Origin: a virus
Lineage: Duplodnaviria > Heunggongvirae > Uroviricota > Caudoviricetes
Virus record (IMG/VR): IMGVR_UViG_2778261630_000008
Coordinates: 1 to 36,187 of that record
Length of the DNA stretch: 36,187 bases
Strand: one strand, 5' to 3'
The notes beneath the pieces are model-generated. The model ran no database searches. It was given only the letters and a program-made list of their open reading frames with translations, and was not told the DNA's origin. Of the stretch, positions 9,544-34,074 are shown piece after piece. Both the position numbers and the translations under genes were made by a program. The first letter of the stretch is position 1. Every line of letters starts with the position of its first letter.

Positions 9544-11310
9544 ATGAACACCACACTGACACCCGCAGATCTCGATCCCCGTCGGCAGGCCATGCTGCTG
9601 TACTTTCAGGGATACCGCGTAGCCCGCATTGCTGAAATGCTGGGCGAGAAAGTTGCAACCGTTCACAGCTGGAAGAAACGCGACAAGTGGGGTGACTATG
9701 GGCCGCTGGATCAGATGCAGCTCACCACCGCCGCACGTTACTGCCAGCTCATTATGAAGGAGCACAAAGAAGGGAAAGATTTCAAAGAAATTGACCTGCT
9801 GGCGCGCCAGTCGGAGCGCCACGCGCGGATCGGCAAGTTTAACAATGGCGGCAACGAAGCCGACTTAAACCCTAACGTCGCCAACCGCAACAAAGGCCCG
9901 CGCCGTCAGCCGGAAAAGAATGTTTTCACCGATGAACAGATAGAGAAACTGGAAGAAATCTTCCATTCCTCCATGTTCAACTACCAGCGCCACTGGTGGG
10001 AAGCCGGAAAAACCAACCGCATCCGCAACCTGCTGAAGTCACGCCAGATCGGCGCGACCTTTTACTTTGCCCGTGAAGCCCTGATTGACGCCCTGCTTAC
10101 CGGACGTAACCAGATTTTCCTTTCTGCCAGTAAGGCACAGGCTCACGTCTTTAAGCAGTACATCATCGACTTCGCCAAAGAAGTCGAGGTGGAGCTGAAA
10201 GGCGATCCGATGGTGCTTCCTAACGGGGCCACGCTTTACTTCCTCGGTACCAATGCCCGCACGGCGCAGAGTTACCACGGCAACCTGTATCTGGATGAAT
10301 ATTTCTGGATACCGAAATTCCAGGAGTTGCGCAAAGTGGCTTCCGGTATGGCTATTCACAAGAAATGGCGACAAACCTATTTTTCCACGCCATCCAGCCT
10401 GACCCACAGTGCTTATCCGTTCTGGTCCGGTGCGCTGTTCAACCGTGGACGCAACAAAGCTGACAAGGTGGACATCGACCTGTCCCACAGCAATCTGGCC
10501 CCCGGCCTACTGTGCGCAGACGGGCAATACCGCCAGATAGTCACCGTGGAAGATGCGGTGCGCGGCGGCTGTAACCTGTTCGACCTCGACCAGCTGCGCA
10601 TGGAGTACAGCCCGGACGAATACCAGAACCTGCTGATGTGCGAGTTCGTGGACGATCTCGCGTCCGTGTTCCCGCTCAGCGAACTGCAGGCGTGCATGGT
10701 GGACAGCTGGGAAGTCTGGACCGACTTTCATGCACTGGCCCTGCGCCCGTTTGGCTGGCGCGAAGTGTGGATCGGTTATGACCCGGCAAAAGGTACGCAG
10801 AACGGCGACAGTGCCGGATGCGTGGTGGTGGCTCCGCCAGCCGTGCCGGGTGGTAAGTTCCGCATTCTTGAGCGTCACCAGTGGCGCGGGATGGACTTCC
10901 GCGCCCAGGCTGACGCCATCAAAAAACTGACCGAACAGTATAACGTGACCTATATCGGTATCGACTCGACCGGCGTCGGTCACGGGGTTTACGAGAACGT
11001 GAAAGCGTTTTTTCCTGCCGTCAGGGAGTTTGTCTATAACCCCAACGTTAAAAACGCCCTGGTACTCAAGGCCTACGACATTATCAGCCACCGCCGTCTG
11101 GAGTTTGACGCCGGGCACACCGACATTGCGCAGTCATTTATGGCAATCCGTCGCGCTACCACTGCCAGTGGCAACCGCCCGACCTATGAAGCCAGCCGCA
11201 GCGAAGAAGCCAGCCATGCCGATCTGGCCTGGGCAACAATGCACGCACTGTTTAACGAACCGCTGCAGGGCGAGTCCGCCAATACCAGCAATATTGTGGA
11301 GATTTTTTGA
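9544..11310 (+). CDS. P: terminase ATPase (large) subunit
   Basis: 588 aa; divergent from O as in P2; stop overlaps Q start (TGATG). Confidence 0.95.
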   Translation: MNTTLTPADLDPRRQAMLLYFQGYRVARIAEMLGEKVATVHSWKKRDKWGDYGPLDQMQLTTAARYCQLIMKEHKEGKDFKEIDLLARQSERHARIGKFNNGGNEADLNPNVANRNKGPRRQPEKNVFTDEQIEKLEEIFHSSMFNYQRHWWEAGKTNRIRNLLKSRQIGATFYFAREALIDALLTGRNQIFLSASKAQAHVFKQYIIDFAKEVEVELKGDPMVLPNGATLYFLGTNARTAQSYHGNLYLDEYFWIPKFQELRKVASGMAIHKKWRQTYFSTPSSLTHSAYPFWSGALFNRGRNKADKVDIDLSHSNLAPGLLCADGQYRQIVTVEDAVRGGCNLFDLDQLRMEYSPDEYQNLLMCEFVDDLASVFPLSELQACMVDSWEVWTDFHALALRPFGWREVWIGYDPAKGTQNGDSAGCVVVAPPAVPGGKFRILERHQWRGMDFRAQADAIKKLTEQYNVTYIGIDSTGVGHGVYENVKAFFPAVREFVYNPNVKNALVLKAYDIISHRRLEFDAGHTDIAQSFMAIRRATTASGNRPTYEASRSEEASHADLAWATMHALFNEPLQGESANTSNIVEIF

Positions 11311-12344
11311 TGGGAAAGAGTAAGAAGAACCGCGCTGCGTCGACGAAACAGATCCAGAATAAAAGCCAGACTTCAGCCGAAGCATTCAGCTTCGGTGATC
11401 CCGTTCCTGTTCTGGACCGCCGCGAACTGCTGGACTATGTGGAATGCGTACAGATGGATCGTTGGTACGAGCCGCCTGTGAGTTTCGACGGACTGGCGCG
11501 AACCTTCCGCGCCGCCGTGCATCACAGCTCACCGATTGCAGTGAAGTGCAACATTCTGACCAGCACCTACATCCCTCACCCGCTGCTCAGCCAGCAGGCT
11601 TTTTCGCGTTTTGTACAGGACTATCTGGTTTTTGGTAACGCCTACCTGGAGAAACGCACAAACCGCTTCGGTGAAGTTATCGCCCTTGAGCCTGCACTGG
11701 CAAAATACACCCGACGCGGGTTAGACCTTGATACCTACTGGTTTGTGCAATACGGCATGACTACGCAGCCGTATCAGTTCACGAAAGGCAACATTTTTCA
11801 TCTGATGGAACCGGACATCAACCAGGAGATCTACGGCCTGCCTGGTTATCTTTCTGCCATTCCGTCAGCTCTGCTCAACGAGTCCGCCACGCTGTTCCGC
11901 CGCAAGTATTACATTAACGGCAGTCATGCAGGCTTCATCATGTACATGACCGATGCAGCGCAGAACCAGGAGGATGTGAACAACCTCCGCAATGCGATGA
12001 AAAGCGCCAAAGGTCCTGGTAACTTCCGTAACCTGTTTATGTACTCGCCTAACGGTAAAAAGGACGGGCTTCAGATTATCCCGTTGTCAGAAGTGGCGGC
12101 GAAGGATGAGTTCCTGAATATCAAGAACGTGAGCCGGGACGACATGATGGCGGCGCATCGTGTGCCGCCACAAATGATGGGGATAATGCCTAATAATGTC
12201 GGGGGGTTTGGGGATGTGGAGAAGGCCAGTCGCGTATTTGTACGTAATGAATTAACGCCCTTGCAAAAAAGGCTACAAGAGCTGAACGACTGGCTGGGCG
12301 AAGAAGTGATTAAATTTACGCCCTATATTCTTTCAGAAGAATAA
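11310..12344 (+). CDS. Q: portal protein
   Basis: ORF-track start 11307 is TTG; ATG at 11310 gives 344 aa, the P2 gpQ length. Confidence 0.95.
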   Translation: MGKSKKNRAASTKQIQNKSQTSAEAFSFGDPVPVLDRRELLDYVECVQMDRWYEPPVSFDGLARTFRAAVHHSSPIAVKCNILTSTYIPHPLLSQQAFSRFVQDYLVFGNAYLEKRTNRFGEVIALEPALAKYTRRGLDLDTYWFVQYGMTTQPYQFTKGNIFHLMEPDINQEIYGLPGYLSAIPSALLNESATLFRRKYYINGSHAGFIMYMTDAAQNQEDVNNLRNAMKSAKGPGNFRNLFMYSPNGKKDGLQIIPLSEVAAKDEFLNIKNVSRDDMMAAHRVPPQMMGIMPNNVGGFGDVEKASRVFVRNELTPLQKRLQELNDWLGEEVIKFTPYILSEE

Positions 12345-12352: not shown

Positions 12353-13051
12353 TTATTTGTTTCTTCTTTGTTCACGCCTTGTCTTGGCTTCGATAAGGCG
12401 TTGAGGTTCAGTGTAAAGCCGTTCTAAAAAAAGATAGGTAAAATCTTCAAGATCCTCAGCAGCAGCTTTATCCAAAATACCTTCATGCGCTCCATCATTT
12501 CCGTCATCTTTAACGCATTCAGCTAGTTCCCTTAAAGCTTCAGGCAGTAGATGATTATCAAATAACCACTCCATTCTTAACCCTAGGCTTCTCCTTATTT
12601 TTTGCGCAGGCCCTTGCTCCCCATCAGGAAGAAGTCCTTTTGTGGCATAATCAAGGCAAAGCCTAAACATGGTTGCTGCTGCATTATAACAACCTATAGC
12701 CAAACATTTCGCCCCTTCCTCATATGCACTATTGATATGCTCAGGTAAGAACTCTGGTGGCTCCTCTACTGCTAAGTCTGCCGGTGATATAGGCCTAACA
12801 ACCTCTGCAACTTCCTTTAAGCCGAATATTCCACTTTCCCAATTATAGCCATCTAAAGTTTTATTTTTCGTTAAAGGTCTGCAAAGAAACATTGTCGTTT
12901 TATGACACTCTCGGCAAACACAATAGACCTCGTACTCGTATGTTTTACCCCCGCCCAATGCATTGTAAACCCTAGTGCAATTCAGCCCATTAACATCAAA
13001 CGCTATTTTTTGTGATCCACATCGTGGACAGTCATCTACTAACATAACCAT
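12353..13051 (-). CDS. cargo protein, 232 aa: N-terminal 4-Cys zinc ribbon plus helical C-terminal domain (possibly DUF4145-like); function unknown
   Basis: ATG 13051 with GGGAGGAG RBS; CPRC...CVCRECH cysteine pairs; more AT-rich than the phage backbone; inserted between the portal stop and cos. Confidence 0.6.
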   Translation of the reverse strand: MVMLVDDCPRCGSQKIAFDVNGLNCTRVYNALGGGKTYEYEVYCVCRECHKTTMFLCRPLTKNKTLDGYNWESGIFGLKEVAEVVRPISPADLAVEEPPEFLPEHINSAYEEGAKCLAIGCYNAAATMFRLCLDYATKGLLPDGEQGPAQKIRRSLGLRMEWLFDNHLLPEALRELAECVKDDGNDGAHEGILDKAAAEDLEDFTYLFLERLYTEPQRLIEAKTRREQRRNK

Positions 13052-13160
13052 GTCAATTACTCCTCCCTATGAAAAAAATGAGTTGAAAAATTGAATATTC
13101 ACGACTTAAAAAGCTAGCCTATTTAACACCATAATTTCATTAATTCAACCATGAGCGCGC

Positions 13161-13180
13161 GCTCGTATCCCCGCCACGCC
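13161..13180. other. cos site of the prophage (186-type variant)
   Basis: Minus-strand GGCGTGGCGGGGATACGAGC shares the first 13 nt with the 186 cohesive end as I recall it; the flanks align base-for-base with the satellite cos region at 27011..27060. Confidence 0.55.
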
Positions 13181-13225
13181 TGCCCGCTTTATGTAGTGGT
13201 TTTCATGCACCTGCATGATCTACGC

Positions 13226-13475: not shown

Positions 13476-14777
13476 TTATTCGGTTAAATTTTTCAATGGC
13501 GCACCTGGAAGATGATGATGAACAAACTTACCTTTATATTCAATATGATAGCAAAGTAACATATAGAACAATGTTAGGCATGAGTTATAATTTTTAACAT
13601 TTTCTTGCCAAGAATGTTCTTTAAAATGTTTTGCGTGCGCAGATCTATTTCTTGCTTTATACCAAGTTGTAGCTAACTCTTCTGGAAAAAATCCTTTTTT
13701 TGCCATATTAAAAAGAGTTCCTTTGACCGAGGATCTTCCACCTTTTTCTAGCAATTGAATAATCGAAGATTTAACTCTCTCGTTTATTTCAAGGTTTTCT
13801 ATCACAGGCTTAGACTCACAACATAAACTGGAAAACTCAACATCTTCTATTTTAAAAGTAGAGTAAAATTTATTTATTACACCTTCAATTGAAACAGTTA
13901 GACTGAGAGTTTCATTTTCTAAATCAGATTGATGAGCATTAAATATCTTTCTCCAATAATAGTAAAAGGTTTTATCAGTCTCGAATTTTTTAATGTATGC
14001 TTGCGAAAATTGCACCCATTCATTTAGATAATATGGAGCTCTTTGAGGAATAAAAGTCATCAGCCTCTGTTTTTCTTTATTATCAATATGCTTAAATATC
14101 AATAACCTACTGTCATTCCCTTGCCACAACACTAAAGCAGGATTGAGTAGAACCCCAGATGCAACGGACAATGAATCTAGAATACTTTTAGCATATAAAT
14201 AAGAAAAATCATCATCAGAATCAAGACAAATCCTAGTGTATTTATCCTCTAAAAGAATGCTAACATTTATATTATTCAACGAAAATACGGATCTCGTCCT
14301 ACGCTTCCCTTCCTCACCTAAGTCTTGAAATTCATTACAAGGGATATTAATTTTTTGCGGGATGAAAAATATTACTTTATGTTTTTTAAAATCCCCATCT
14401 ATTTTTCTTTTTATTTCATAAAGCTCACAATCAATGCTTACCCCTTGTTGTGAAGCATTGATATTTACATATGGGTCAACATCTTTTGCTTGCCATAAAT
14501 ACCCATTCAAATCAATCGCATTCATAGAAAAAAGATATTCACTACCGATGATTTCTCCATAATCAAGATGATTATATGTTGGGCATGTGCTAAATTGAGC
14601 ATCAGTTTCTTTATGTAAGAACTTTAGATGAATTTTATTATTTTTATAATAAAAAAATCCAGAACCTGTAAACATTTTTGGATTTTCATTAGTTTGTTGT
14701 GTGAGAGTCACCTCAATTAATTCATGAGTAAATGAACCAGCCAATAGTTCTTCAATTTTTTCTTTAACAATGTTCAC
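13476..14777 (-). CDS. cargo protein, 433 aa, strongly AT-rich; C-terminal HEPN-like R-N-x3-H motif; candidate anti-phage / abortive-infection effector
   Basis: GTG 14777 with AAGGAAGGA RBS; motif WYKARNRSAHAKHF near the C-terminus; sits at the cos-to-gene-A accessory locus (old/tin position of P2); composition contrasts with the backbone. Confidence 0.7.
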   Translation of the reverse strand: MNIVKEKIEELLAGSFTHELIEVTLTQQTNENPKMFTGSGFFYYKNNKIHLKFLHKETDAQFSTCPTYNHLDYGEIIGSEYLFSMNAIDLNGYLWQAKDVDPYVNINASQQGVSIDCELYEIKRKIDGDFKKHKVIFFIPQKINIPCNEFQDLGEEGKRRTRSVFSLNNINVSILLEDKYTRICLDSDDDFSYLYAKSILDSLSVASGVLLNPALVLWQGNDSRLLIFKHIDNKEKQRLMTFIPQRAPYYLNEWVQFSQAYIKKFETDKTFYYYWRKIFNAHQSDLENETLSLTVSIEGVINKFYSTFKIEDVEFSSLCCESKPVIENLEINERVKSSIIQLLEKGGRSSVKGTLFNMAKKGFFPEELATTWYKARNRSAHAKHFKEHSWQENVKNYNSCLTLFYMLLCYHIEYKGKFVHHHLPGAPLKNLTE

Positions 14778-15034: not shown

Positions 15035-15268
15035 TTAATGCAGCCAGCTGTCGTCTTCCCACACCTTCTGCATAATTTTCATCACTTGTTTTCTTTCTTC
15101 ATCCAGTTGCAGTCCGGTTAGTTCCACACCGTTAGAGCTACCTTTGCGAATGCGAATTACCGTTTTGGGATACAGGGGGCGCAGATTGCGGTAAAGCTCG
15201 GATTCAAGGGCGTTCAGGGTAGACTGGCTAATCTTCTGCTCTTTATCGATCATTATTTCAATGCGCAT
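15035..15268 (-). CDS. DinI-family protein
   Basis: ATG 15268 with GAGGTGA RBS; 77 aa (MRIEIMIDK...VWEDDSWLH) resembling DinI as recalled; second gene of a LexA-box operon. Confidence 0.8.
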   Translation of the reverse strand: MRIEIMIDKEQKISQSTLNALESELYRNLRPLYPKTVIRIRKGSSNGVELTGLQLDEERKQVMKIMQKVWEDDSWLH

Positions 15269-15278
15269 AAAAGTCACC

Positions 15279-15467
15279 TCAGCTGATGACATCCATTGAG
15301 CGGTTGTATTCGTGGCTTCTGATTTTTGCCATGAGTTCATCAGTCAATTCAGAAACCCACTGCAGAGCCAGCCCCTTCTCTTCATCACTACACTCACTAG
15401 CCGCTACAAGCTTAAGAAAAAAATCAATGCGCTGGAGCTTCAAAGACTCCAAAAAATAGTCCTGCAT
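15279..15467 (-). CDS. small SOS-operon protein at the Tum (antirepressor) position of 186
   Basis: 62-aa ORF, ATG 15467 with AGGAGGAA RBS, ~40 bp downstream of a LexA box; function inferred from position only. Confidence 0.5.
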   Translation of the reverse strand: MQDYFLESLKLQRIDFFLKLVAASECSDEEKGLALQWVSELTDELMAKIRSHEYNRSMDVIS

Positions 15468-15619: not shown

Positions 15620-18034
15620 TTAATACAGGTTCCGCCACTTATCATCTTCCTGCAAACGCTGGTTCCGATAGAAGACACGCAGGCCTGCTCCTGACGGAAT
15701 ACTGCCGCCGCGAAGGAGTAAATCGACCTCTTTCTCGCTGCCATCAAATCCTCTGGACTTCAGTTCATAGACGAGCTGCTGTCGCTGATGGTCTGTAATT
15801 CGCTGTTTGTAGTCTTTACGCCGTTTCGGTTTCACCTGGCGTAACCTTGCAGCCAGTTCCCGGCGCTCTTTTTTGCTCATACTGTGCAGGTAATCGTGCA
15901 ACTCCTTGTCATTCATACGGGTAATATCCGTTCTGGAGTCCCCATCAGCTGATTTGTCTTTCCCTTGTTGGTTCAAATTTTCAGCAAGGGGACAGTTATT
16001 GCCACGAGTCCAAGGGGCGCAAGCGCCCTGGTCGGCTGCCGCCTCCTGAACGTCAACGGCCTTACGAACCATTTTCCACTTCACTGCATGAGTGCAGATC
16101 TTGCCCTCTGCAATGGGTGACCAGATGCCATAAATACGAATACCGTGATCGCCATAGGCGGTTGGCTCTTCGTTGATTTCATAAGCGGTTCTGATGAGGT
16201 GATATTTGCGGGGAACCAGTACGCCGCCCTGCTTCATGATGTAGGTGGCAAAACAACCAGCATCAGCAGCAGCCAGGATGGCATCAAGGCGCGGGTTATC
16301 CAGTACCGGCGCACCTGCTTTTTTGTCACCCTGTTGCCTTGCCGCCTGACCAGCCAGCAATCGCAGTTCACGGTAAGCCTGACGCCCCGGAATGCCAAAG
16401 AAGCGGAATTGCTGAACACGATGCAGAGACGCCCAGGCATTAACATATTCAGCGTTATCACGCAGGGATTTACCCGTTTCCTTACTGATCTCGCCAGCCA
16501 GACCACGCCCGTCAATATTCTTACTGATATATTTCGCAATGTAGCTTGTCGGCGTTCCTTTGCGCGGGTTTATCAGCTCAGACTTAAAGCGTGGCCCCGT
16601 GTTATTGCCCAGCTCCTCGCGGTCTTCTCGGATGGCAAACTTACGCAACAATGCAGTAATGGCGCGGCGGTCTTTTTTGCGCATGAAACACAACAGGTGC
16701 CAGTGAACTGTGCCGTCATGATGCGGCTCAGCCACCCGCACGCCATACCAGCGCAACCCGGCTTTGTGCATAGCCTTACGAAATGCAGCAAACATGCCGA
16801 CCAGATAATCGCTGCTTTGTCTTACTGTCGCGTTGGTCCAGGTCGGGTTTGGCCTGCCGTTATTTAGCGTGGAATGGAAACGTGACGGACAGGTGATGGT
16901 GTAGAAAACGGCGCAGTCACCACGCATTTCCGCGATAAGCTCCAGGCCTTTAACACAGGCCATCATCTCGTTGCGGCGATGCGCCGGGTTGCTGCTGCTG
17001 GCGTTTACCACATCCTCCATGTTCAGCGTGTCGCCGTCTTCGTTCACCAGTTCATGAGAACGGAAAAACTCCAGCGACTTACGGCGCTGCTCACGTTTAT
17101 GCATCACGGCTTCATAGCTGACATAGGGAGATGCTTTTTTGCTGACCAGGCAGACAGCACGCAACTGCTCTTCCCGCCATTCGCAACGCATCTTCCATAA
17201 TTTCCGATACCACCAGTCGGCGCACAGCATACGCGCCAGCGAACCCGGAATGAGTTCATAAGGCACAGGTTTGCGGCGGTTTCTTTTCCGGCGGAGTTGC
17301 TCAAACGCAGGCGGTATGACATCCAGTCGCAGGGTTTCTGCAGCCACCTTTTCCCATGTCTTGCGGATTTCTTCTGGCTTAACATCATCGGAGGCGTACA
17401 AATCACCACAAGCGGCATCAAGACACATGCTCATATGCGCAGCGACAAGGGTAGACAGGCGTTTCACCTGATCCTGACTCATTTCAGGCAGGATCAGCAG
17501 ACCGTCCAGCCCTTCATGGCTTGCCATAAAACGAAAAGATGCAGATAGCTGGCTGTCGCGTACATGCTCCAGTCGTTCCAGACATGGCTTAATCGTCTCA
17601 CGCAAATAGCGGGAATAAGCCTTTGGCCTGCCCAGGCTGCTGAAATATTCAATACGTTGCATCAGCGGCTTGCTGATATGGGAAGGCTGGGCGTTGACGT
17701 CAGCCAGAATGACCATATCCGGATTAAAACGCTGCTGCTCATGCGCCAGCTTTGCCCGGCTAATGAGCTTATCCTGCTCCATTTCGCGTTGGACAGGATC
17801 ACGGGATTCATTAAAGAAATAACGCTCCCAGACCTGATCACTCAGTGCCTCGCGGCGCAGTTGTTCCTGCTCGTTATCGGTAGCGTACAGAGTGATCAGG
17901 TTTGAAAGCGCAGAAACCGGCGCAACTTCCGCCGGGTCCAGATAAGGGTTAATGGCCTTTTTCGGGCTGTTCCATGAGAATGCTGCGGCGACCTTGTTAA
18001 AGCCGCTGCAGTTGTTCATATCAGCATGGCTCAT
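15620..18034 (-). CDS. A: replication initiation endonuclease (rolling-circle initiator)
   Basis: 804-aa ORF, convergent with Q across cos as in P2; start overlaps dam stop (ATGA). Confidence 0.95.
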
Positions 18035-20960: not shown

Positions 20961-21076
20961 AGTGCAGTATCTCTTAGTTTGGTTTCGTTTTATCTTGTTT
21001 TATGTGGTTTGGTTTTGCTTTTCAAACCATGAATGGATATTAAGATCACTTTTTATATACGTCAAGAGGTTTGATT
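20961..21076. promoter_or_regulatory. immunity switch region (lytic and lysogenic promoters and operators)
   Basis: 110-bp AT-rich intergenic between apl and cI with repeated TTTTGCTTTTC / GTTTTATGTGGTTTGGTTTTG motifs; promoter positions not resolved. Confidence 0.45.
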
Positions 21077-21709
21077 ATGAGTTTAATCAAGGCAGGGAAT
21101 GATAGTGGTGGGCGCGATGCGATTAATAGGCTTATTAAGGCTTACAACTTCAGCTCACGACAGCAGCTCTGCGAACATCTGGAAGTATCAAAAAGCACTA
21201 TGGCTAACAGATACTTAAGGGATAGCTTTCCTGCCGAATGGGTAATCCAATGTGCCCTTGAAACAGGAGCTTCCCTTCTTTGGCTGGCTACTGGTCAAGG
21301 AGATATGTATGCGTGTGAGAACGAAGAAACAAATCTCAAAAATGAACCTCCCGTCACTGTAAGACCACTTTCTAAGATCGTTGCTCCTAGCATCAAACGT
21401 GTTGAACTGAAGAACGGCGAACTGCAGCCAAGTGATGAAATTCTTCTTGATAGCAGCCTGCTCGATGGTGACTCATCCAACGCTTTATTTGTTAAAACAG
21501 CTAATGATAGCTTTGTAGTGGATACGTCTGTTAAACAAGTCAGTAATGGCTTCTGGTTAGTCGATATGGACGGAGTTAAAAGCATCGTCAAAATTGCGCG
21601 CATACCCGGAAACAAAATAGTAGTTAACCAAGATGACACTTCATTTGAATGTTCTGTAGATGATGTGGAAGTCGTAGGACGTGCAGTCAAAGTAATCAAG
21701 AACCTCTAA
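21077..21709 (+). CDS. cI: CI immunity repressor
   Basis: ORF-track start 21071 is TTG; ATG 21077 has AGAGG RBS; N-terminal HTH and C-terminal oligomerisation-like domain; followed by int as in 186. Confidence 0.8.
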   Translation: MSLIKAGNDSGGRDAINRLIKAYNFSSRQQLCEHLEVSKSTMANRYLRDSFPAEWVIQCALETGASLLWLATGQGDMYACENEETNLKNEPPVTVRPLSKIVAPSIKRVELKNGELQPSDEILLDSSLLDGDSSNALFVKTANDSFVVDTSVKQVSNGFWLVDMDGVKSIVKIARIPGNKIVVNQDDTSFECSVDDVEVVGRAVKVIKNL

Positions 21710-21712: not shown

Positions 21713-22753
21713 ATGACCATCAGAAAACAGCCGAACGGAAAATGGTTGTGTGAGTGCTATCCCAATGGACGCAATGGTAAGCGCGTGCGTAAGCAATTTG
21801 CTACCAAAGGCGAAGCCATTGCGTTTGAAAGCTTCACAATGGAAGAAGTGAACAAAAAACCATGGCTAGGGGAAAAGGAAGATCGGCGACATCTATCAGA
21901 ATTAATTGAGCTGTGGTATTCCCTGTATGGTCAAACACTCGCAGACCCCAAGCGCCTCATGGCGAAACTTAGAATTATCTGTAATGGTCTAGGCGATCCC
22001 ATCGCCTCAGAACTGACAGCTGGTGAGTTTACGAAATACCGCGAAGCACGGTTAAAAGGTGAAGTACGAAATGAAGATGGCACGCTTATGTCGCCAGTTA
22101 AGCCCCGCACGGTAAATCTTGAACAGCGCAACCTATCATCTGTTTTTGGTACACTGAAAAAGCTGGGCCACTGGTCAGCCCCCAACCCGCTTGCTGGGCT
22201 GCCAACATTTAAAATTGCTGAGGGTGAATTGGCGTTCCTGACCCCGGAAGAAATTAAACGTCTGCTGGATGCCTGTGCTGATTCTCAAAGCCCCAGTCTG
22301 CTGATGATTGCAAAAATATGCTTGGCCACCGGCGCACGCTGGAGCGAAGCCGAAAACCTACAGAGTCATCAGGTATCAAAATACCGTATCACTTATACCA
22401 AGACTAAAGGAAAGAAAAACCGAACAGTGCCTATTTCAAAGGATTTATATGAAGAACTGCCTAAGAATAGGGGAAAATTATTTACACCTTGTAGGAAAGC
22501 TTTTGAACGTGCGGTAAAACGAGCTGGTATCGAGCTACCAGAAGGGCAATGCACACACGTATTACGACATACATTTGCAAGTCACTTTATGATGAATGGC
22601 GGAAACATACTGGTGCTGCGCGATATTCTGGGCCATGTCGATATAAAAATGACAATGATTTACGCCCACTTCGCTCCCGACCATCTGGAAGATGCTGTAA
22701 CCAAAAATCCTCTTGCTAACCTTGGATGGAGAAAATTAGAAAGTGCTTGTTAA
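21713..22753 (+). CDS. int: tyrosine integrase
   Basis: 346 aa with C-terminal R...H.LRHT...Y catalytic region; 4 bp after cI stop. Confidence 0.9.
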   Translation: MTIRKQPNGKWLCECYPNGRNGKRVRKQFATKGEAIAFESFTMEEVNKKPWLGEKEDRRHLSELIELWYSLYGQTLADPKRLMAKLRIICNGLGDPIASELTAGEFTKYREARLKGEVRNEDGTLMSPVKPRTVNLEQRNLSSVFGTLKKLGHWSAPNPLAGLPTFKIAEGELAFLTPEEIKRLLDACADSQSPSLLMIAKICLATGARWSEAENLQSHQVSKYRITYTKTKGKKNRTVPISKDLYEELPKNRGKLFTPCRKAFERAVKRAGIELPEGQCTHVLRHTFASHFMMNGGNILVLRDILGHVDIKMTMIYAHFAPDHLEDAVTKNPLANLGWRKLESAC

Positions 22754-23874: not shown

Positions 23875-23919
23875 ATGTAGGAATTTCGGACGCGGGTTCA
23901 ACTCCCGCCAGCTCCACCA
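23875..23919 (+). other. ssrA: tmRNA (ssrA) 3'-terminal 45-nt segment = attachment-site core shared by the prophage and the satellite
   Basis: ATGTAGGAATTTCGGACGCGGGTTCAACTCCCGCCAGCTCCACCA matches the E. coli tmRNA 3' end as I recall it; sequence upstream diverges, so this is not a full tmRNA gene. Confidence 0.8.
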
Positions 23920-24103: not shown

Positions 24104-25297
24104 GTGGCAAGAACGACACGCCCCCTGACCAACACAGAAGTGCTGCGCGCAAAAGCGTTAGAAAAGGATCTTACATTGCATGATGGCGATGGTCTTTTTC
24201 TTCTCGTTAAAACGAACGGTAAGAAGTTATGGCGTTTCCGTTATCAACGTCCGACAACAAAGCAGCGGACAATGATGGGGCTAGGTGCCTTCCCAGCCAT
24301 ATCGCTTGCAGATGCCAGGAGATTAAAAGCTGATTATCTTTCATTATTAGCCAATGGAATTGATCCGCAAATTCAAGCGAAAGTGGCAGAGGAACAGCAA
24401 CAAATCGCGCTTGACAGTATTTTTTCAACAGTCGCCGCTAACTGGTTTCTGCTCAAAAGCAAAAGCGTTACCCCTGATTACGCAAAAGACATTTGGCGTT
24501 CACTTGAGAAAGACGTATTCCCCACTATCGGTGAGATCCCCGTTCAGAAGATCAAAGCCCGAACATTAATTGAAGCTCTTGAGTCCGTCAAAGCTCGAGG
24601 GGCGCTAGAGACCGTTCGTCGACTGGTGCAACGCATTAACGAGATAATGATTTATGCGGTTAACACCGGTTTGATTGATGCAAATCCAGCATCAGGTGTT
24701 GGTATGGCATTTGAGAAACCTAAAAAGAAAAATATGCCAACACTACGCCCAGAGGAATTGCCTAATCTGATGCATTCATTAACAATGTCAAATCTATCTG
24801 TCTCTACTCGATGTCTCATTGAATGGCAACTCCTAACTCTTGTCCGCCCTTCTGAAGCTTCAGGCACTCAATGGGCTGAGATCGATTTAGATGCGAAACT
24901 CTGGATAATTCCAGCTGAAAGAATGAAAGCAAAACGAGAACACATTGTTCCTTTGTCCCCCCAAGCTTTAGACATTTTGAATATAATGAAACCCATCAGT
25001 GCTCATCGTACACATGTTTTTCCTAGCAGGAGTGACCCCTTAAAACCAATGAATAGCCAAACGGCAAATGCCGCATTAAAGCGAATTGGCTTCGCTGGCA
25101 AACTAGTAGCCCATGGTCTACGTTCTATTGCAAGCACCGCCTTAAACGAACGTGGTTACAATCCTGATGTTATAGAAGCAGCTCTTGCTCATAGCGATAA
25201 AAACGAAGTACGTCGCGCTTATAATCGCTCGGTTTATTTAGAAAAACGTAAGCAACTAATGAATGATTGGGGGCAAATTGTGCACCCCCAATCATAA
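24104..25297 (+). CDS. int: P4-family tyrosine integrase (IntA-like)
   Basis: 397 aa, GTG start with AAGGAG RBS; strong resemblance to CP4-57 IntA / P4 Int as recalled; ~185 bp downstream of the ssrA core. Confidence 0.9.
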   Translation: MARTTRPLTNTEVLRAKALEKDLTLHDGDGLFLLVKTNGKKLWRFRYQRPTTKQRTMMGLGAFPAISLADARRLKADYLSLLANGIDPQIQAKVAEEQQQIALDSIFSTVAANWFLLKSKSVTPDYAKDIWRSLEKDVFPTIGEIPVQKIKARTLIEALESVKARGALETVRRLVQRINEIMIYAVNTGLIDANPASGVGMAFEKPKKKNMPTLRPEELPNLMHSLTMSNLSVSTRCLIEWQLLTLVRPSEASGTQWAEIDLDAKLWIIPAERMKAKREHIVPLSPQALDILNIMKPISAHRTHVFPSRSDPLKPMNSQTANAALKRIGFAGKLVAHGLRSIASTALNERGYNPDVIEAALAHSDKNEVRRAYNRSVYLEKRKQLMNDWGQIVHPQS

Positions 25298-25346: not shown

Positions 25347-26931
25347 TTATGTAGATTTAACATCAAGATGTTCTCCACAGTATCCGATAATTATTTTACG
25401 TTTACTTCTATCAACCCAAAAGTGGATTCTTATAGTTTCAGACTTGGAGCGGGCTGTTCCTATACCAACGTGTTGGAACATCTTTATTTTTTGACCATTA
25501 TAGTCAAACTCTCTCATTTTAGATAATGTAGCAGATCGCTCTACCGTCTCTGATTCATTTGCTGAATAAGCATCACCAAGAATATCTTTGGCCTTATTAT
25601 CTCCATTTTCAAGATACTCAAGAAGATATTCTGTACAAAGTTTATATAATAAATAAATCAATCTATGATTGTGTTTGAATTTCGATGAGTTCCTCGCTGA
25701 AGAAAATGCTGATTTAAGAATCTCAACATTATTAGGGATTAGGATTTCTAATAAACTCAAAACGGACTCAGGGTTTAACCTATTGCTAATTAAAGATATT
25801 ATCTTTTCAACATCAACATCACCATCAGTAGCTTTTCCATGGTATTTCCTAATATCGTATTTTAACCTTTCTAAGTCTACTTCTATTTTATTTTTTTCAA
25901 AGACAACTGCATCATGCTTTGCATCCAATTCCTCAATCCTTTTTAAATAATCAAGCTCTAATTCTTCACTAGCAGCCTTAAACTCCTCAAACTCTAAGAG
26001 GACTTCATCGAGCAAAGCTTCATACTGAGCACCATCTTTTAACTCATTTAATCTCTGCCTAAAAGAAATATTATCATCACGCTGTCTTTTGGCACGAACA
26101 TTAGCTGGTGATAAATGCAACTTTTTATTATAGCCATTAAAAGCATGCGTTATTACTGATAATATATAATTATTAATAGGAACATTACCCGCTTTAATTT
26201 CATCAACTTGCTTCGGGAGAAAAAGTTTTGTTCCTATATACCCTGACTTATTCATTGGGTAAATAATATTTATTGCCCCCCCCCCAAGATGAATAGTGTC
26301 TTCCAAGTAATCGTTCCATTTCCCAAGAGTCCATTTTACCACTTGTTGCAACAACCTGAGCAAGCCCAATAAGTTGCTCCTGTAGTTTTTCAGGTATAAC
26401 AGGAAATCCATCATTACCTTCACTAATAAAAACTAGCGGGTAGGTCCTGTCATCCCTAGAAATTTCATGCATAAGATACTGAAAGTCGCCATACTGACTT
26501 TTAATATAATCCACTTTCTGGCCGATAACATCCAGATCGAATACACAATTCCGTTTCAAATATGATACCAGAGATGGACGAGTAGCAATTGGTTTTGCAT
26601 CAACCATAGTGCTAACATCACTTATTTCTAACAATATAGATATAAACGTGCTTCCTTTTTCACGTCTAATTCCAATTTCTGTAATCCATTGTCTACCGCT
26701 CACATTCCTATCAGGATGAGTGTACATTATGGAATATATTTTAGGTTCCATTCTATCAGCCGTGTAGGTTCTAACATAGGCTCGCTCTAAATTCCAATCA
26801 CGCCGCGAAAGTAGCTCATCTGTTGATAGGCGAATATTAGCAACCCTATTAAGCCAACCACACACAGAACGCACTACGCTAAAAAAACTATCTTCACCGA
26901 TGCAATTAAACGAATTAACATAAACTAACAC
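25347..26931 (-). CDS. satellite hotspot gene, ~528 aa if read through a G10 tract; as written split into 227-aa and 358-aa overlapping frames; function unknown
   Basis: GTG 26931 with AAAGGAGA RBS; frame A (26931..26248) and frame B (26423..25347) overlap by 176 bp with the homopolymer inside the overlap; loss of one G fuses them; AT-rich; between int and cos. Confidence 0.55.
26276..26285. repeat. homopolymeric tract, C10 on plus strand (G10 on coding strand)
   Basis: Ten consecutive C at 26276..26285, at the junction of the two frames of the hotspot gene. Confidence 0.95.
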
Positions 26932-27019
26932 TACAATCTCCTTTCACTCATTTAAAGGGGAGGCTGAAAAGGAGTTATCTTATATACTTTTTGTAAATTA
27001 TTTCAATCTTTTGCGCGCA

Positions 27020-27038
27020 GTGCTTTCCCCGCCTCGCC
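27020..27038. other. cos site of the satellite (P2/P4 type)
   Basis: GTGCTTTCCCCGCCTCGCC is the reverse complement of GGCGAGGCGGGGAAAGCAC, the 19-nt P2/P4 cohesive end as I recall it. Confidence 0.8.
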
Positions 27039-27140
27039 CGCCCGCTTTGCGGGGCGGTTTTAATGCAGTTTCACTGACACGCTCAGGCCGCGCCGGGAAT
27101 GGCGCGGTCTGCAGAAAATGAGGCAGGAAAACGCATGCAA

Positions 27141-27202: not shown

Positions 27203-27775
27203 TTACACAGACTGACGTGATGCCAGTTGCGCACTTTTACGCGAAAAAATCATGTTCTGCGCAGGGGTGAATTTTTCACGGCTGTCATCCACCGAAGCCG
27301 CGTCAGGCCTGAATCCGATGGCCGTTAAAATGTCGCTATCCTGTGCGGAATAATTAATTTTTTCCCCCTTCGCAAGCCAGGACAGAAGGGCTTCACGCAG
27401 GGCATCTGTGGTACGCTGTATGGCACAGTTTCGGGCAATGGCCGTCAGCTCACTGTAGCCCATCAGCTCCGGTGCCAGTGCCGCCGCCAGTGCTGTACCG
27501 TGCTGCTGCATAAAATCATTCAGCCGGTCGCGGATGCTGATGTGCTGAACGGCTTCATGCGAACGAATATAACGACCGGCGGCCTGATTCACCTGCCATT
27601 TTCTGACTTCGATAATATTGCGTAATTCGTCCAGGCGGCTGACGTTTCTGCCTTCTCCTGACAGAAGCCGCAGATATTCCTGTTCGGCCGCTGCCAGCTC
27701 ATTTTTGCGTTGCAGCCATGCTGCTTTGTTATTCTGACAGGTGTCAAAGGCCTGCTGTAAGGCTGTGCTTTCCAT
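27203..27775 (-). CDS. psu: polarity suppression protein Psu (capsid decoration / Rho antagonist)
   Basis: 190 aa, the P4 Psu length; last gene of the sid-delta-psu operon next to cos. Confidence 0.9.
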   Translation of the reverse strand: MESTALQQAFDTCQNNKAAWLQRKNELAAAEQEYLRLLSGEGRNVSRLDELRNIIEVRKWQVNQAAGRYIRSHEAVQHISIRDRLNDFMQQHGTALAAALAPELMGYSELTAIARNCAIQRTTDALREALLSWLAKGEKINYSAQDSDILTAIGFRPDAASVDDSREKFTPAQNMIFSRKSAQLASRQSV

Positions 27776-27848: not shown

Positions 27849-28349
27849 TCATTCCAGACGCAGCGAATATGATTGTGTTTTTAACCGTACTGGCGGCAGT
27901 TCCTGTTTTTCATGCAGGCGTTCTGCCAGTTCGTCCGGCGTGACCGGGCGGACAATGAAGCGGTTGATGGTCTGAAGCGTTTTAAACACCAGACCACAGC
28001 CCGGATCCGTGCACACATAAAAACGCTCGGTGACTTCCTGAGACAGACGCCGCGATGTTCTTGACAGTGCAAGGCCTTTACATCTCCGACAACAATATCC
28101 GGTAACAAGCATTCTTTTCGGGCGTTTCATACTGCCGGAGGCCGACGTCAGTGAATCGAGGTATCTCTGTTTGCCTGAAATGTATTCCATTCCTGAATCT
28201 TTACAGTCAGAGAAAAAGCTTTCACTCGCTTCAAATGTCGCAGAGCAATAAATATTCCGGCACTGTGCAATCATTATCTTGGTGCCATCGTCCATGAAAT
28301 GTGCGCGACGGGTGTGAGCAACATGTCCACACGACGGGCAGTAAATCAT
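27849..28349 (-). CDS. delta: Delta late-gene transactivator (duplicated Ogr-type zinc finger)
   Basis: 166 aa with two CxxC...CxxC units (CPSCGH... and CCRRCKG...); start overlaps sid stop. Confidence 0.9.
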   Translation of the reverse strand: MIYCPSCGHVAHTRRAHFMDDGTKIMIAQCRNIYCSATFEASESFFSDCKDSGMEYISGKQRYLDSLTSASGSMKRPKRMLVTGYCCRRCKGLALSRTSRRLSQEVTERFYVCTDPGCGLVFKTLQTINRFIVRPVTPDELAERLHEKQELPPVRLKTQSYSLRLE

Positions 28350-29080
28350 GACAGCAGTCCTCTGGCCTTAAGCTCTGCTCCCTGCTGGTCTATTTTGTCC
28401 TGCCACACCTTGCGCTGTGCCGGTGTGCCTGCCACCTCATAATCCATGTGCGGGAGTGTTGCCGCTGACAGTCCGGTCAGCCGGAGAACCGGCTCGCCGG
28501 TGAGGCTGATTTGCATCTGTTTTATTTTCTGTTCCAGCGATGATTTCACCTGCTGCATGACAGCTTTATCGGGTGCGACGTAGCCCTGATGGCCGGTGGT
28601 GTTGGCGAGCGGATTTTCCTGTACCAGGATGCTCAGATGCATTGCCCGGACAAGCGCCTCACAGGTTTCATTCAGGGCGTGTTCCAGCTCATTCTCTGCA
28701 TACAGACTCAGAAGGTGATGATGTGCCTTCCGGTAGGCGGTGGCCGTGCTGTCACACGCCCCTTTCAGGCGTTCACGTTCAAAATTCAGCACCACGGCCA
28801 GATTGTCATATTCCTGTACCAGCTCCCGGCGTGCCACGCGCTCAATGTGGCGCTGTTTCAGCTCGTCGCTCAGGACACCTCCGGCTGCACGAAAGGCCGT
28901 GCGCCAGTCGTCAGCGTCGTTTCCGTCGGCCTGCGCCAGCGCATTTTTTTCCTGCTCTGCCCGTTCAATAGCCGTGACGGTCTCATCCATCAGGCGGGCG
29001 TTCTCAAGATGAGCGACTCTGGCCTTTTCCAGTTGTGCCAGCGCGGGTTGCAGATATTCAGGGATGGTGTTGTCAGACAT
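28346..29080 (-). CDS. sid: Sid external scaffold (capsid size determination)
   Basis: ORF-track start 29098 is GTG; ATG 29080 with GAGGAG RBS gives 244 aa, the P4 Sid length. Confidence 0.85.
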   Translation of the reverse strand: MSDNTIPEYLQPALAQLEKARVAHLENARLMDETVTAIERAEQEKNALAQADGNDADDWRTAFRAAGGVLSDELKQRHIERVARRELVQEYDNLAVVLNFERERLKGACDSTATAYRKAHHHLLSLYAENELEHALNETCEALVRAMHLSILVQENPLANTTGHQGYVAPDKAVMQQVKSSLEQKIKQMQISLTGEPVLRLTGLSAATLPHMDYEVAGTPAQRKVWQDKIDQQGAELKARGLLS

Positions 29081-29114
29081 TTTCCGGCTCCTCGTCACTT
29101 CAGGTTAAGAAAAT

Positions 29115-29132
29115 TGTGACGTACACCGGACA
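29115..29132. promoter_or_regulatory. TGT-N12-ACA activator site upstream of sid (Psid-type late promoter)
   Basis: TGT 29115..29117, 12 nt, ACA 29130..29132, just upstream of the sid start. Confidence 0.5.
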
Positions 29133-29249
29133 ACAACACGACGCATTGCAGATGTGCCAGCCCTGACACAGGAGACTCATCCTCAGACCGGCAAGCCAGG
29201 AAAAGGTCGCAGGAAAAACCGGCTTACTGTTTGTTTTTTTATATTTTAC

Positions 29250-30058: not shown

Positions 30059-30297
30059 GTGTCGCAATCAACGCCACAGAGCGCCAGATTATGGTGTGGC
30101 GTGTGGTTTGCCGTGCAGGTATGATCCTGTTCGCAATCACATGTTATGCCACTGAGTCAATGGTAGCTCAGGCGGGGCAGCCTCCGGGCTGGCCGGTATT
30201 CTTCGAGGCCGGTATTCTCACCCCCGTCTGGGCTATCGCCATCGAGCGTGAGAACTCCGGCGATAGCAGTTATTTGCTACTCGAAGGAGGCTGCCTT

Positions 30298-31693: not shown

Positions 31694-34027
31694 ATGAAAA
31701 TGAACGTAACCGCCACCGTCAGCCATGCGCTCGGCCACTGGCCGCGTATTCTCCCGGCGCTGGGGATTCAGGTGCTGAAAAACCGTCATCAGCCCTGTCC
31801 GGTCTGTGGCGGGAGTGACCGCTTCCGTTTTGATGACAGGGAGGGGCGCGGCACCTGGTACTGCAATCAGTGTGGTGCCGGTGACGGCCTGAAACTGGTT
31901 GAAAAGGTGTTTGGTGTTTCCCCGTCCGACGCGGCCGCAAAGGTGGCTGCCGTGACCGGCAGCCTGCCCCCGGCTGACCCGGCAGTGACGACCGCCGCCG
32001 GTGCTGAAACAGACGCTGCCCGGAAGAACGCCGCCGCACTGGCACAAACCCTGATGGCGAAAACCCGTCCCGGAACCGGTAACGCCTACCTGACCCGCAA
32101 GGGCTTTCCCGGCCGGGAATGCCGGATGCTGACCGGCACACACAGAGCCGGTGGCGTGAGCTGGCGCGCCGGTGACCTTGTGGTGCCACTGTATGACGAC
32201 AGCGGCGAACTGGTTAACCTTCAGTTAATCAGCGCTAACGGCCGTAAGCGCACCCTGAAAGGCGGACAGGTCAGGGGCACCTGTCACACCCTTGAAGGAC
32301 AGAATCAGGCCGGAAAACGTCTGTGGATAGCGGAGGGATACGCGACCGCACTTACCGTGCATCACCTGACCGGTGAAACGGTGATGGTGGCGCTTTCTTC
32401 CGTGAACCTCCTTTCTCTGGCCAGCCTTGCCCGGCAGAAGCATCCGGCCTGTCATATTGTCCTTGCTGCTGACCGTGACCTCAGCGGTGACGGCCAGACA
32501 AAAGCCGCCGCAGCCGCAGATGCGTGTGAAGGTGTTGTTGCCCTGCCGCCGGTCTTCGGTGACTGGAATGATGCCTTCACGCAGTACGGCGGGGAAGCCA
32601 CCCGTAAGGCCATTTATGATGCCATCCGGCCACCGGCTGAAAGCCCGTTCGACACCATGAGCGAAGCGGAGTTTTCCGCCATGAGTACCAGCGAAAAGGC
32701 CATGCGTATCTATGAGCATTACGGCGAGGCGCTCGCGGTCGATGCCAACGGCCAGCTTCTGTCCCGCTATGAAAATGGTGTCTGGAAGGTGCTGCCGCCA
32801 CAGGACTTTGCCCGGGATGTGGCCGGGCTGTTTCAGCGTCTGCGCGCGCCGTTCTCCTCCGGGAAGGTGGCCTCCGTGGTGGACACCCTGAAGCTGATTA
32901 TTCCGCAGCAGGAAGCCCCCTCCCGCCGCCTGATTGGCTTTCGTAACGGCGTGCTCGACACGCAGAGCGGCACGTTCCACCCGCACAGTCCGTCACACTG
33001 GATGCGCACCCTGTGCGATGTGGATTTCACCCCGCCGGTGGAAGGGGAAACGCTGGAAACCCACGCCCCCGCGTTCTGGCGCTGGCTTGACCGTGCCGCC
33101 GGTGGTCGTGCGGAAAAACGCGACGTGATTCTGGCCGCACTGTTTATGGTGCTGGCAAACCGCTACGACTGGCAGCTCTTTCTGGAGGTGACCGGCCCCG
33201 GCGGCAGCGGCAAAAGTATCATGGCCGAAATAGCCACCCTGCTGGCCGGTGAGGATAACGCCACGTCGGCCACCATCGAGACGCTGGAATCCCCGCGTGA
33301 ACGTGCCGCGTTAACTGGCTTCTCACTGATACGCCTGCCGGACCAGGAAAAATGGAGCGGCGACGGTGCCGGACTCAAGGCCATCACCGGCGGCGATGCG
33401 GTGTCCGTTGACCCGAAATACCGGGATGCATACTCCACGCATATCCCGGCGGTAATTCTGGCCGTGAACAATAACCCGATGCGCTTCACCGACCGCAGCG
33501 GCGGCGTGTCACGCCGGCGGGTGATTATTCACTTCCCGGAACAGATAGCCCCGCAGGAGCGCGACCCGCAGCTTAAGGACAAAATCACCCGCGAGCTGGC
33601 GGTCATCGTGCGTCACCTGATGCAGAAGTTCAGCGACCCGATGCTCGCCCGGTCACTGCTTCAGTCCCAGCAGAACTCAGACGAGGCGCTGAACATCAAA
33701 CGGGATGCCGACCCGACGTTTGATTTTATCGGCTATCTGGAAACCCTGCCGCAGACCAGCGGCATGTATATGGGGAACGCCAGTATCATCCCGCGCAATT
33801 ACCGTAAATACCTCTATCACGCCTATCTGGCCTACATGGAGGCAAACGGCTACCGGAATGTACTCAGTCTGAAAATGTTCGGGCTGGGGCTGCCGGTGAT
33901 GCTGAAGGAATACGGACTGAATTACGAGAAGCGCCATACCAAACAGGGGATACAGACCAACCTGACGCTGAAAGAGGAAAGCTACGGCGACTGGCTGCCA
34001 AAATGTGACGACCCTGCAACAACCTGA
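31694..34027 (+). CDS. alpha: alpha primase-helicase (zinc-binding N-terminus, primase, SF3-type helicase, iteron-binding C-terminus)
   Basis: 777 aa, the P4 alpha length; CPVCGG...CNQCG zinc motif at the N-terminus, Walker A GPGGSGKS mid-protein; GGAGAA RBS. Confidence 0.95.
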   Translation: MKMNVTATVSHALGHWPRILPALGIQVLKNRHQPCPVCGGSDRFRFDDREGRGTWYCNQCGAGDGLKLVEKVFGVSPSDAAAKVAAVTGSLPPADPAVTTAAGAETDAARKNAAALAQTLMAKTRPGTGNAYLTRKGFPGRECRMLTGTHRAGGVSWRAGDLVVPLYDDSGELVNLQLISANGRKRTLKGGQVRGTCHTLEGQNQAGKRLWIAEGYATALTVHHLTGETVMVALSSVNLLSLASLARQKHPACHIVLAADRDLSGDGQTKAAAAADACEGVVALPPVFGDWNDAFTQYGGEATRKAIYDAIRPPAESPFDTMSEAEFSAMSTSEKAMRIYEHYGEALAVDANGQLLSRYENGVWKVLPPQDFARDVAGLFQRLRAPFSSGKVASVVDTLKLIIPQQEAPSRRLIGFRNGVLDTQSGTFHPHSPSHWMRTLCDVDFTPPVEGETLETHAPAFWRWLDRAAGGRAEKRDVILAALFMVLANRYDWQLFLEVTGPGGSGKSIMAEIATLLAGEDNATSATIETLESPRERAALTGFSLIRLPDQEKWSGDGAGLKAITGGDAVSVDPKYRDAYSTHIPAVILAVNNNPMRFTDRSGGVSRRRVIIHFPEQIAPQERDPQLKDKITRELAVIVRHLMQKFSDPMLARSLLQSQQNSDEALNIKRDADPTFDFIGYLETLPQTSGMYMGNASIIPRNYRKYLYHAYLAYMEANGYRNVLSLKMFGLGLPVMLKEYGLNYEKRHTKQGIQTNLTLKEESYGDWLPKCDDPATT

Positions 34028-34059: not shown

Positions 34060-34074
34060 ATCCCTGAATTCCCC

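Follow-up and report, generated by a model that had tools for sequence, protein, structure and literature searches.

Cohesive ends of two classes in a P4-type satellite and the Fels-2-type prophage beside it at the Escherichia coli tmRNA gene

Introduction

In the P2/P4 system, the satellite P4 supplies only its cos site, and terminase, capsid, tail and lysis proteins come from the helper phage. The terminase (gpM and gpP) recognises cos on circular monomers, makes staggered nicks 19 nucleotides (nt) apart and packages the DNA; the 5′ cohesive ends anneal after injection. The identity of the P2 and P4 cos sites has long been known, and coliphage 186 is a proven P4 helper with a non-identical cos. 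Here we ask whether a P4-type satellite lying directly beside a P2-like prophage is matched to it at the packaging step. The locus is IMG/VR record IMGVR_UViG_2778261630_000008, analysed over its whole length of 36,187 nt (hereafter the window), in which the two elements lie in tandem at the 3′ end of the E. coli transfer-messenger RNA (tmRNA) gene, ssrA. One is a P2-like prophage of the Fels-2 lineage (Felsduovirus/Elveevirus, Cartapus-like), the other a satellite of the P4 family, and they are two independent cos-packaging elements.

An earlier reading of the letters alone (the original prediction) had claimed that the satellite carries an exact P2-type cos and the prophage a divergent 186-type one, and had left two alternatives: the neighbour is not the helper to which the satellite is adapted, or its terminase tolerates both ends. 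This was the right pair of alternatives, and the comparative data presented here favour the first, without deciding.

Results

A predicted P2/P4-type cos in the satellite

The comparison involves the following sites.

27020..27038, minus strand: cohesive-end 19-mer of the satellite, GGCGAGGCGGGGAAAGCAC
27013..27078, minus strand: cos core of the satellite (40 nt of right-end flank, the 19-mer and TGCGCGC)
13162..13180, minus strand: cohesive-end 19-mer of the prophage, GGCGTGGCGGGGATACGAG
13155..13220, minus strand: cos core of the prophage (flank, the 19-mer and CGCGCGC)

The satellite 19-mer has a single exact match in the window, where none is expected by chance, and is identical to the annotated cosL of P2 (NC_001895, positions 1-19) and to positions 1-19 of P4 (NC_001609). 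The claim of an exact P2-type cos was thus borne out, and the cohesive ends that had been given for the reference phages proved right against the P2, P4 and 186 records. Over -40 to +7, the satellite core is identical to P4 at 64 of 66 positions and to P2 at 57 of 66. The end of the P4 record, position 11624, aligns to window position 27039, so the P4 genome end falls exactly beside the satellite 19-mer, and from there to 34372 the window corresponds to P4 11624..4291 at 97.3% identity. The site is found 164 nt beyond the psu stop codon, and in satellites chosen blind to cos, conservation around it extends from about -36 to +7. A core of about 55 bp flanking the cohesive end is common to P2 and P4, as the work of Ziermann and Calendar (1990) is cited in PMC3931495 and PMC9122126. 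By its 19-mer, its core flanks and its position beyond psu, the satellite carries a P2/P4-type cos, for which cleavage to a 19-nt 5′ overhang is predicted.

The 40-nt flank has a sole difference from P4: at 27066-27078 the near-palindrome TGCAACTGCA of P4 reads TGAAACTGCA, as it also does in strain GPEC673.

The prophage end is typical of the Fels-2 lineage

The prophage 19-mer also has a single match in the window, and no other match to either 19-mer was found there within 3 mismatches. It sits between the portal gene and gpA, as cos does in P2. The original prediction had pointed to a string at 13161..13180; this 20-mer, GGCGTGGCGGGGATACGAGC, occurs once, on the minus strand, but the homologous end is the 19-mer 13162..13180, the 20th base being the first flanking one. 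To call it a divergent 186-type cos was misleading. The same 19-mer is found in Fels-2, Cartapus, SEN8 and the HS4 prophage, here with the Fels-2-type flank TGCATGAAAACCACTACATAAAGCGGGCA, and the core is identical to that of Fels-2 at 66 of 66 positions, to 186 at 52, and to P2 and P4 at 48 each; Cartapus and the HS4 prophage likewise have the full 66-bp core. Compared with the annotated cos of 186 (NC_001317, positions 1-19, GGCGTGGCGGGGAAAGCAT), the prophage end agrees at 15 of 19 positions. The first 13 nt are the same, as had been noted, but four of the last six differ (positions 14, 16, 17 and 19) and not all six; relative to P2 five of 19 differ, these four plus position 5.

The SEN8 genome paper names ggcgtggcggggatacgag as the cos site of that phage (PMC5427200), and a putative cos is annotated at the Fels-2-type 19-mer in the SEN8 and Cartapus records, the labels being given by analogy to P2. 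Experimental end mapping for this 19-mer was not found in the records and searchable literature. In order to have a sample blind to cos, 80 IMG/VR phages were picked by similarity to the window portal, and cos was recovered in 62. Sixty of these sites carried the exact Fels-2 19-mer and two carried it with one change; P2-type ends, or ends of the AGAGCAT type described below, were found in 0 of the 62. A block of about 45 bp, from about -36 to +7, is conserved in these relatives, and column identity then falls to about 47% in the adjoining cargo DNA. So sharp a drop indicates that the block is conserved as a site, and not merely through relatedness. The prophage 19-mer is the standard end of the Fels-2/SEN8/Cartapus lineage, and its predicted cos.

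One build, two classes of end

The alignment of both regions to the P2, 186 and P4 references, which had been proposed as a check, was run, and both align ungapped as cos cores. The two window sites also align with each other without gaps from about -40 to +7, so that the ungapped alignment claimed for some 50 bp of flank holds. Identity is 26/40 upstream, 14/19 in the end and 6/7 downstream (GCGCGC), or 46/66 overall; beyond +7 the likeness stops abruptly and the sequences are unrelated. The build common to both is ATGCAnnTGCAT(T/G)AAAAC, about 9 variable nt, AAGCGGGC(A/G), the 19-nt end and (T/C)GCGCGC. Within it the 19-mers form two classes, which differ at positions 14-19 and read ...A(A/G)AGCA(C/T) in one and ...ATACGAG in the other. 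At positions 16-18 the satellite reads GCA and the prophage CGA; the two sites are therefore not of the same class, as those of a helper and its satellite would be. GCA was found at these positions in all sampled satellites and P2/186-class ends, CGA in all sampled Fels-2-class ends.

The class of the end follows the terminase

Protein identities are given below for the small and large terminase subunits (TerS and TerL) and the major capsid protein, in the order window versus P2, window versus 186, P2 versus 186. The window portal is 61-63% identical to those of P2 and 186.

TerL: 64%, 64%, 89%
TerS: 50%, 50%, 71%
Capsid: 60%, 59%, 76%

Phages of IMG/VR that carry the Fels-2 19-mer have TerL 84-100% and TerS 81-100% identical to those of the window, whereas for phages with the P2-type end or with GGCGTGGCGGGGAGAGCAT, the AGAGCAT-type end, the values are 62-64% and 47-53%. 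P2-type and AGAGCAT-type phages compared among themselves are 75-86% identical in TerL and 65-79% in TerS. The cos class co-varies with the terminase clade. Judged by sequence, a first group of ends, ...A(A/G)AGCA(C/T), comprises P2, 186, PSP3, the AGAGCAT phages and nearly all sampled P4-like satellites. A second, ...ATACGAG, appears confined to phages of the Fels-2 lineage, the terminase subunits of which make up a clade of their own. The end of PSP3 belongs with the P2/186 group (PMC5261728). Published ends of SEN4/5 and of the Stenotrophomonas phage Smp131 also finish in ACGAG, and the two-class split may therefore be old.

Satellites carry the ends of one class

IMG/VR was scanned for exact 19-mers, and the loci listed were classed by tblastn with the satellite and phage proteins of the window.

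Fels-2-type end, 119 loci listed: 114 phage, 0 satellite, 5 unclassified
P2-type end, 120 loci listed: 99 phage, 20 satellite, 1 unclassified
AGAGCAT-type end, 106 loci listed: 20 phage, 84 satellite, 1 tandem, 1 unclassified

Satellite content of the Fels-2 type (0 of 119) differs from that of the P2 type (20 of 120; Fisher test, p = 8e-7) and of the AGAGCAT type (85 of 106; p = 2e-42). Four P2-type loci first flagged as satellite plus phage were rejected as tandem arrays; they are phages whose ogr matches delta, and were counted as phage. The five unclassified Fels-2-end loci were likewise rejected as unusual satellites, four being short phage fragments. The fifth, a 13.5-kb contig (L035, IMG/VR 2700989567_000009), has the Fels-2 19-mer at 1475-1493 with a diverged upstream flank, and genes for an integrase, RecE/RecT, YdaT, a ParB-HTH protein and a DnaC-like protein replace gpA and the early genes of P2 type. 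This may be a P2-type phage whose early region is lambdoid, and not a satellite; the contig ends before any head genes.

Satellites of other species were sampled blind to cos, through Psu alignment. Of 43 loci, cos was found in 38: 27 had the AGAGCAT type, seven the P2 type, one the 186 type and three were singletons, and the Fels-2-type end was found in 0 of 38. The commonest satellite end across Enterobacterales species is thus GGCGTGGCGGGGAGAGCAT (27/38), and not that of P2 and P4; among the loci listed in IMG/VR, satellites with this end (84) far outnumber phages (20).

Whole collections were also scanned for a 19-mer followed, at the proper distance, by the codons of FRPD, an invariant motif of Psu. 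The Fels-2 type gave 0 matches in IMG/VR, with two gap ranges, and 0 in 241 million metagenome records. In the controls, the P2 type gave 70 matches (IMG/VR) and the AGAGCAT type 111 (metagenomes). Since 15 of 20 known P2-type satellites were regained, the sensitivity of this composite scan is about three quarters.

Among 5,426 complete E. coli genomes, a TerL gene of the Fels-2 clade is present in 1,176 (22%) and one of the P2 clade in 1,595 (29%), and a P4-like cos-psu-delta-sid segment is present in 867 (full length) to 2,271 (any match). A scarcity of Fels-2-class phages therefore does not account for the absence of their end from satellites. The ends of P4-like satellites are of the P2 type or GGCGTGGCGGGGAGAGCAT, with close variants in rare cases, and both main types occur also on phages; the Fels-2-type end is on no P4-like satellite sampled. 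Co-residence, tried by means of the genome identifiers in IMG/VR contig names, was dropped as too sparse, with 2-3 overlaps per cos class among the phages listed.

The mismatched tandem recurs at ssrA

Complete E. coli genomes were searched with a 25-kb query reaching from TerL to alpha. The same tandem array, with varying cargo, is present at ssrA in at least 13 of them, and 9 further genomes have the array with a more divergent satellite; in many others the prophage is alone and the match ends at the ssrA fragment. The arrangement is also found on IMG/VR contigs 2558860442_000001, 2786546178_000003 and 2788499887_000001. Eight arrays were checked: HS4, PSS-08-2 (satellite cos only), GPEC673, E47, SCU-172, L3_E36_ETEC, MARGA_3 and D3. 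The prophage had the Fels-2 19-mer in all seven whose fetched stretch included its cos. The satellite end was of the P2 type in six, of the AGAGCAT type in one (MARGA_3) and an odd, GGCGGGCGGGGCAGCGCAC-like one in D3, and in 0 of the 8 was it of the Fels-2 type. Tandem arrays are mismatched in cos class wherever checked, and for the Fels-2 lineage the mismatch is the rule.

The tmRNA locus is an integration hotspot for prophages of several groups and for P4-like satellites (PMC10121019). Adjacency of prophage and satellite can therefore be explained without a functional link.

The D3 satellite is divergent, with the gene order delta-psu-sid, and adjoins a Fels-2-class prophage. Its cos-like site (L484, about 27560-27600) has the usual flank (GTGCATGAAAACC...AAGCGGGCA) and the unusual end GGCGGGCGGGGCAGCGCAC, without the following GCGCGC.

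Layout of the two elements

The prophage spans the window from position 1 to about 22750. Its recognisable genes are listed here with the Pfam families or other models they match.

6839..7489, minus: TerS, gpM homologue (Phage_term_smal)
7493..8551, minus: major capsid protein, gpN homologue, target of Sid and Psu in P4-type takeover (Phage_cap_P2)
9544..11310, plus: TerL, gpP homologue (Terminase_6N/6C/Terminase_5)
11307..12344, plus: portal, gpQ homologue (Phage_portal)
12353..13051, minus: cargo gene beside cos, weak similarity to PD-T7-4 (DUF4145; PADLOC PD-T7-4, E = 1e-6)
13476..14777, minus: cargo gene on the other side of cos, a 433-aa open reading frame (ORF) in a stretch of 31-36% GC
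15035..15340, minus: DinI/Tum-like gene (DinI)
15620..18034, minus: replication endonuclease gpA (Phage_GPA)
21071..21709, plus: 186-type CI repressor (Phage_CI_repr, Phage_CI_C)
21713..22753, plus: integrase (Int_N, Phage_integrase)

The 433-aa ORF had no match in Pfam, PADLOC or NCBIfam. The two cargo genes at 12353-13051 and 13476-14777 bracket the prophage cos, and the same pair is found in GPEC673; other strains have different cargo there (TIR, DUF2971, STAS-like). Between the prophage integrase and the ssrA fragment, at 22743-23789 on the plus strand, lies a 348-aa ORF with no family match. Its slot is occupied elsewhere by an anti-phage dCTP deaminase (E47), an HNH endonuclease (MARGA_3) or, in others, hypothetical proteins, and seems to be a further place for variable cargo, at the end of the prophage.

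The junction and the satellite follow.

23880..23919, plus: 3′ end of ssrA (last ~40 nt, GGAATTTCGGACGCGGGTTCAACTCCCGCCAGCTCCACCA), the attachment-site copy between prophage and satellite
24104..25297, plus: satellite integrase, ssrA-targeting, not that of P4 (Arm-DNA-bind_3, Phage_int_M, Phage_integrase)
25347..26931, minus: hotspot cargo of the satellite, an HEC-07-like candidate defence gene in two frames (PADLOC PDLC04161)
27203..27775, minus: psu (Psu, E = 3e-88), inside the 97.3% P4-identical block
27849..28349, minus: delta, an Ogr/Delta activator (Ogr_Delta)
28346..29098, minus: sid, lying under P4 sid in the 97.3%-identical alignment
30156..30243, plus: P4-type CI/C4 immunity RNA (Rfam RF01695, 74.3 bits)
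31694..34027, plus: alpha primase-helicase, 777 aa as in P4 (Zn_Ribbon_Prim, Toprim_3, D5_N, Pox_D5)

The ssrA fragment has 2 mismatches to an annotated ssrA attP, and strains PSS-08-2 and GPEC673 have a partial ssrA annotated at the same prophage/satellite junction. No tmRNA was found in the window by ARAGORN or Rfam, because it holds just the last ~40 nt of the gene. The P4-like core of the satellite (psu, delta, sid, alpha, integrase and immunity RNA) is all present, in P4 order, and the right flank of the window is E. coli glaH, 100% identical to strains A3 and A26. In the HEC-07-like gene, ORF 26248-26931 matches positions 36-255 of the PDLC04161 model and the overlapping ORF 25347-26423 positions 333-551; the gene is either a frameshifted pseudogene or split by a sequencing error. 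Directly after alpha, at 34073-34372, are two direct repeats of 120 nt, spaced by 180 nt and 79% identical, where the crr repeats are annotated in P4.

Discussion

Our preferred reading, to which we give a probability of roughly 0.55, is that the packaging specificities of the two elements belong to different classes, and that a shared integration site is all that makes them neighbours. Both integrases would target ssrA, so that the elements would adjoin, and not as a matched pair. The satellite's packaging site would copy the P2/186 class and not that of the neighbour, and the satellite would most likely depend on a helper of the P2/186 class, which could superinfect the cell or reside at another place in the genome; the prophage next to it would at best be a suboptimal packager. 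Annealing of the ends needs only self-complementarity, yet positions 14-19 are kept within each class, which suggests recognition by a protein near the bottom-strand nick. The terminase may read these positions there, and the mismatch would then lower or abolish packaging of the satellite by its neighbour. In addition, P4 epsilon is not known to inactivate the 186-type CI repressor, so that exploitation of the neighbour would need SOS induction or a superinfecting helper. That the prophage responds to SOS induction is suggested by this repressor together with the DinI/Tum-like gene.

Several observations weigh against this reading, and they are best considered with the alternative that the neighbour is a working helper, which we regard as possible at distinctly less than even odds. 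Its terminase would read the first 13 nt of the end and the flank that both sites share (TGCAT.AAAAC ... AAGCGGGC), nick at a fixed distance and tolerate the last six bases; the mismatch would have no functional consequence, and the tandem pair would be a real helper-satellite unit of the P4/186 kind. Since 186 packages and helps P4 despite 2 mismatches in the 19-mer, exact identity of the end is not required. The two window sites share the flanking skeleton on which cos function is thought to depend, ungapped and with 46 of 66 core positions identical, and over the 40-nt flank the prophage is no further from P4 (27/40) than are P2 (30/40) and 186 (31/40). Even the first base past the bottom-strand nick already differs among the P2, 186 and Fels-2 types. 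The tandem recurs, in the E. coli genomes and IMG/VR contigs described above, with two satellite cos classes. If Fels-2-type terminases are tolerant, satellites need no ATACGAG end and would never gain one, and the absence data fit this alternative too. As to the samples, sets selected by pattern are partly circular for conservation of the 19-mer, only the portal- and Psu-selected sets being blind to cos; and with a view limited to this window, a matched helper elsewhere in the genome cannot be shown. No paper testing a Fels-2-type phage as P4 helper, or cos-class compatibility, was found in the searchable literature.

The working helper nevertheless meets difficulties of its own. Compared with proven helpers, the neighbour's TerS is only 50% identical, its TerL 64% and its capsid 60%, and the class-fixed positions 16-18 (GCA versus CGA) argue that the enzyme reads them. 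The shared use of ssrA accounts for the adjacency. Dyads of the Ogr/Delta type, TGT-N12-ACA, are present between the prophage genes P and O and upstream of sid (9480-9497, 29115-29132 and 29153-29170), which makes transcriptional cross-talk plausible. Their positions are the appropriate ones, but with a count in the window that is not above chance (14 observed, 9 expected) the motif occurs too often to serve as evidence.

The class mismatch can be extended further, in a form that we find rather doubtful. The Fels-2-lineage phages would be a packaging class that P4-like satellites cannot pirate, co-divergence of cos (positions 14-19) and terminase being the means of escape, and the satellites next to them at ssrA would be defence islands for that lysogen, not parasites of that prophage.

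It is very unlikely that the satellite is immobile, a fixed defence island whose cos is a relic, so that a match to any phage would be irrelevant. The hotspot cargo gene is indeed split by a frameshift, related arrays have an integrase broken by an insertion sequence (GPEC673) or an ash pseudogene (E47), and P4-like elements are widespread in enterobacterial genomes (PMC8628076). But the 19-mer is intact, and the cos core around it matches P4 at 64 of 66 positions. The genes psu, delta, sid and alpha have their full length, within 7.3 kb of 97.3% identity to P4; the score of the immunity RNA clears the threshold by a wide margin, and the ORF of the integrase is unbroken. That 13162..13180 is not the packaging site of the prophage, whose true cos would be elsewhere, is scarcely credible: the database labels of the 19-mer are all "putative", by analogy to P2, but the site has the P2 location between portal and gpA, a ~45-bp block kept among relatives beside hypervariable cargo DNA, an ungapped alignment to the P2, 186 and P4 cores, and no second match to either 19-mer within 3 mismatches in the window.

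Both elements are ordinary members of well-known families. The satellite resembles P4 (NC_001609) from cos via psu, delta, sid, the immunity region and alpha to crr, sharing its 19-mer and C4 immunity RNA. It differs in its integrase, which has no megablast match to the P4 integrase region, and in its cos-proximal cargo, both unrelated at the DNA level to the int/gop-beta-cII region of P4; in the base after the 19-mer, which is T as in P2 and C in P4; and in being integrated at ssrA. The usual integration site of P4 is tRNA-Leu. Enterobacterales satellites with GGCGTGGCGGGGAGAGCAT have the same gene order and flank skeleton, with cos 165-200 nt beyond psu, and are also found in tandem with Fels-2-class prophages (MARGA_3 and IMG/VR contigs); their end differs from that of the window satellite at positions 5, 14 and 19.

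The prophage part is about 95% identical, over 85-88% of its length, to Cartapus (Elveevirus) and its Klebsiella and E. coli relatives. Cartapus has been described as closely similar to Fels-2 (PMC9928086). With the Fels-2/SEN8/Cartapus lineage (Peduoviridae: Felsduovirus, Elveevirus) the prophage shares the 19-mer, equal to the published SEN8 cos, the 186-type CI and the DinI/Tum-like gene; unlike these, the cargo around cos and beyond the integrase varies from record to record. Coliphage 186 (Eganvirus) is similar in the first 13 nt of the end and in a CI-type lysogeny module, and dissimilar in 4 of the last 6 nt, in TerL (64%) and in TerS (50%).

The Fels-2-type 19-mer was already published for SEN8 (PMC5427200). 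The co-variation of cos class with terminase clade, the use of one class by satellites and the common occurrence of mismatched tandem arrays were not found in the searchable literature, and recent surveys treat P2-like phages collectively as helpers, without cos-class analysis. We consider the finding real and modestly interesting, its value lying in the clean experiment that it suggests and not in a new kind of element.

Taken together, the results point to two or more cos/terminase classes among P2-like phages. Only one of these would be copied by satellites, although the other is nearly as common in E. coli (22% versus 29% of complete genomes). If packaging goes ahead despite the mismatch, this would show that terminases of the P2 family leave the final third of the cohesive end unread. 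If it is blocked, a term for helper class would be needed in co-occurrence statistics, in estimates of satellite host range and in designs for P4-based delivery particles, and the locus would be a simple case of a phage lineage that evades a satellite when DNA is packaged. Should the Fels-2 class prove refractory altogether, the "P2-like helper" of surveys would split into an exploitable and a refractory class.

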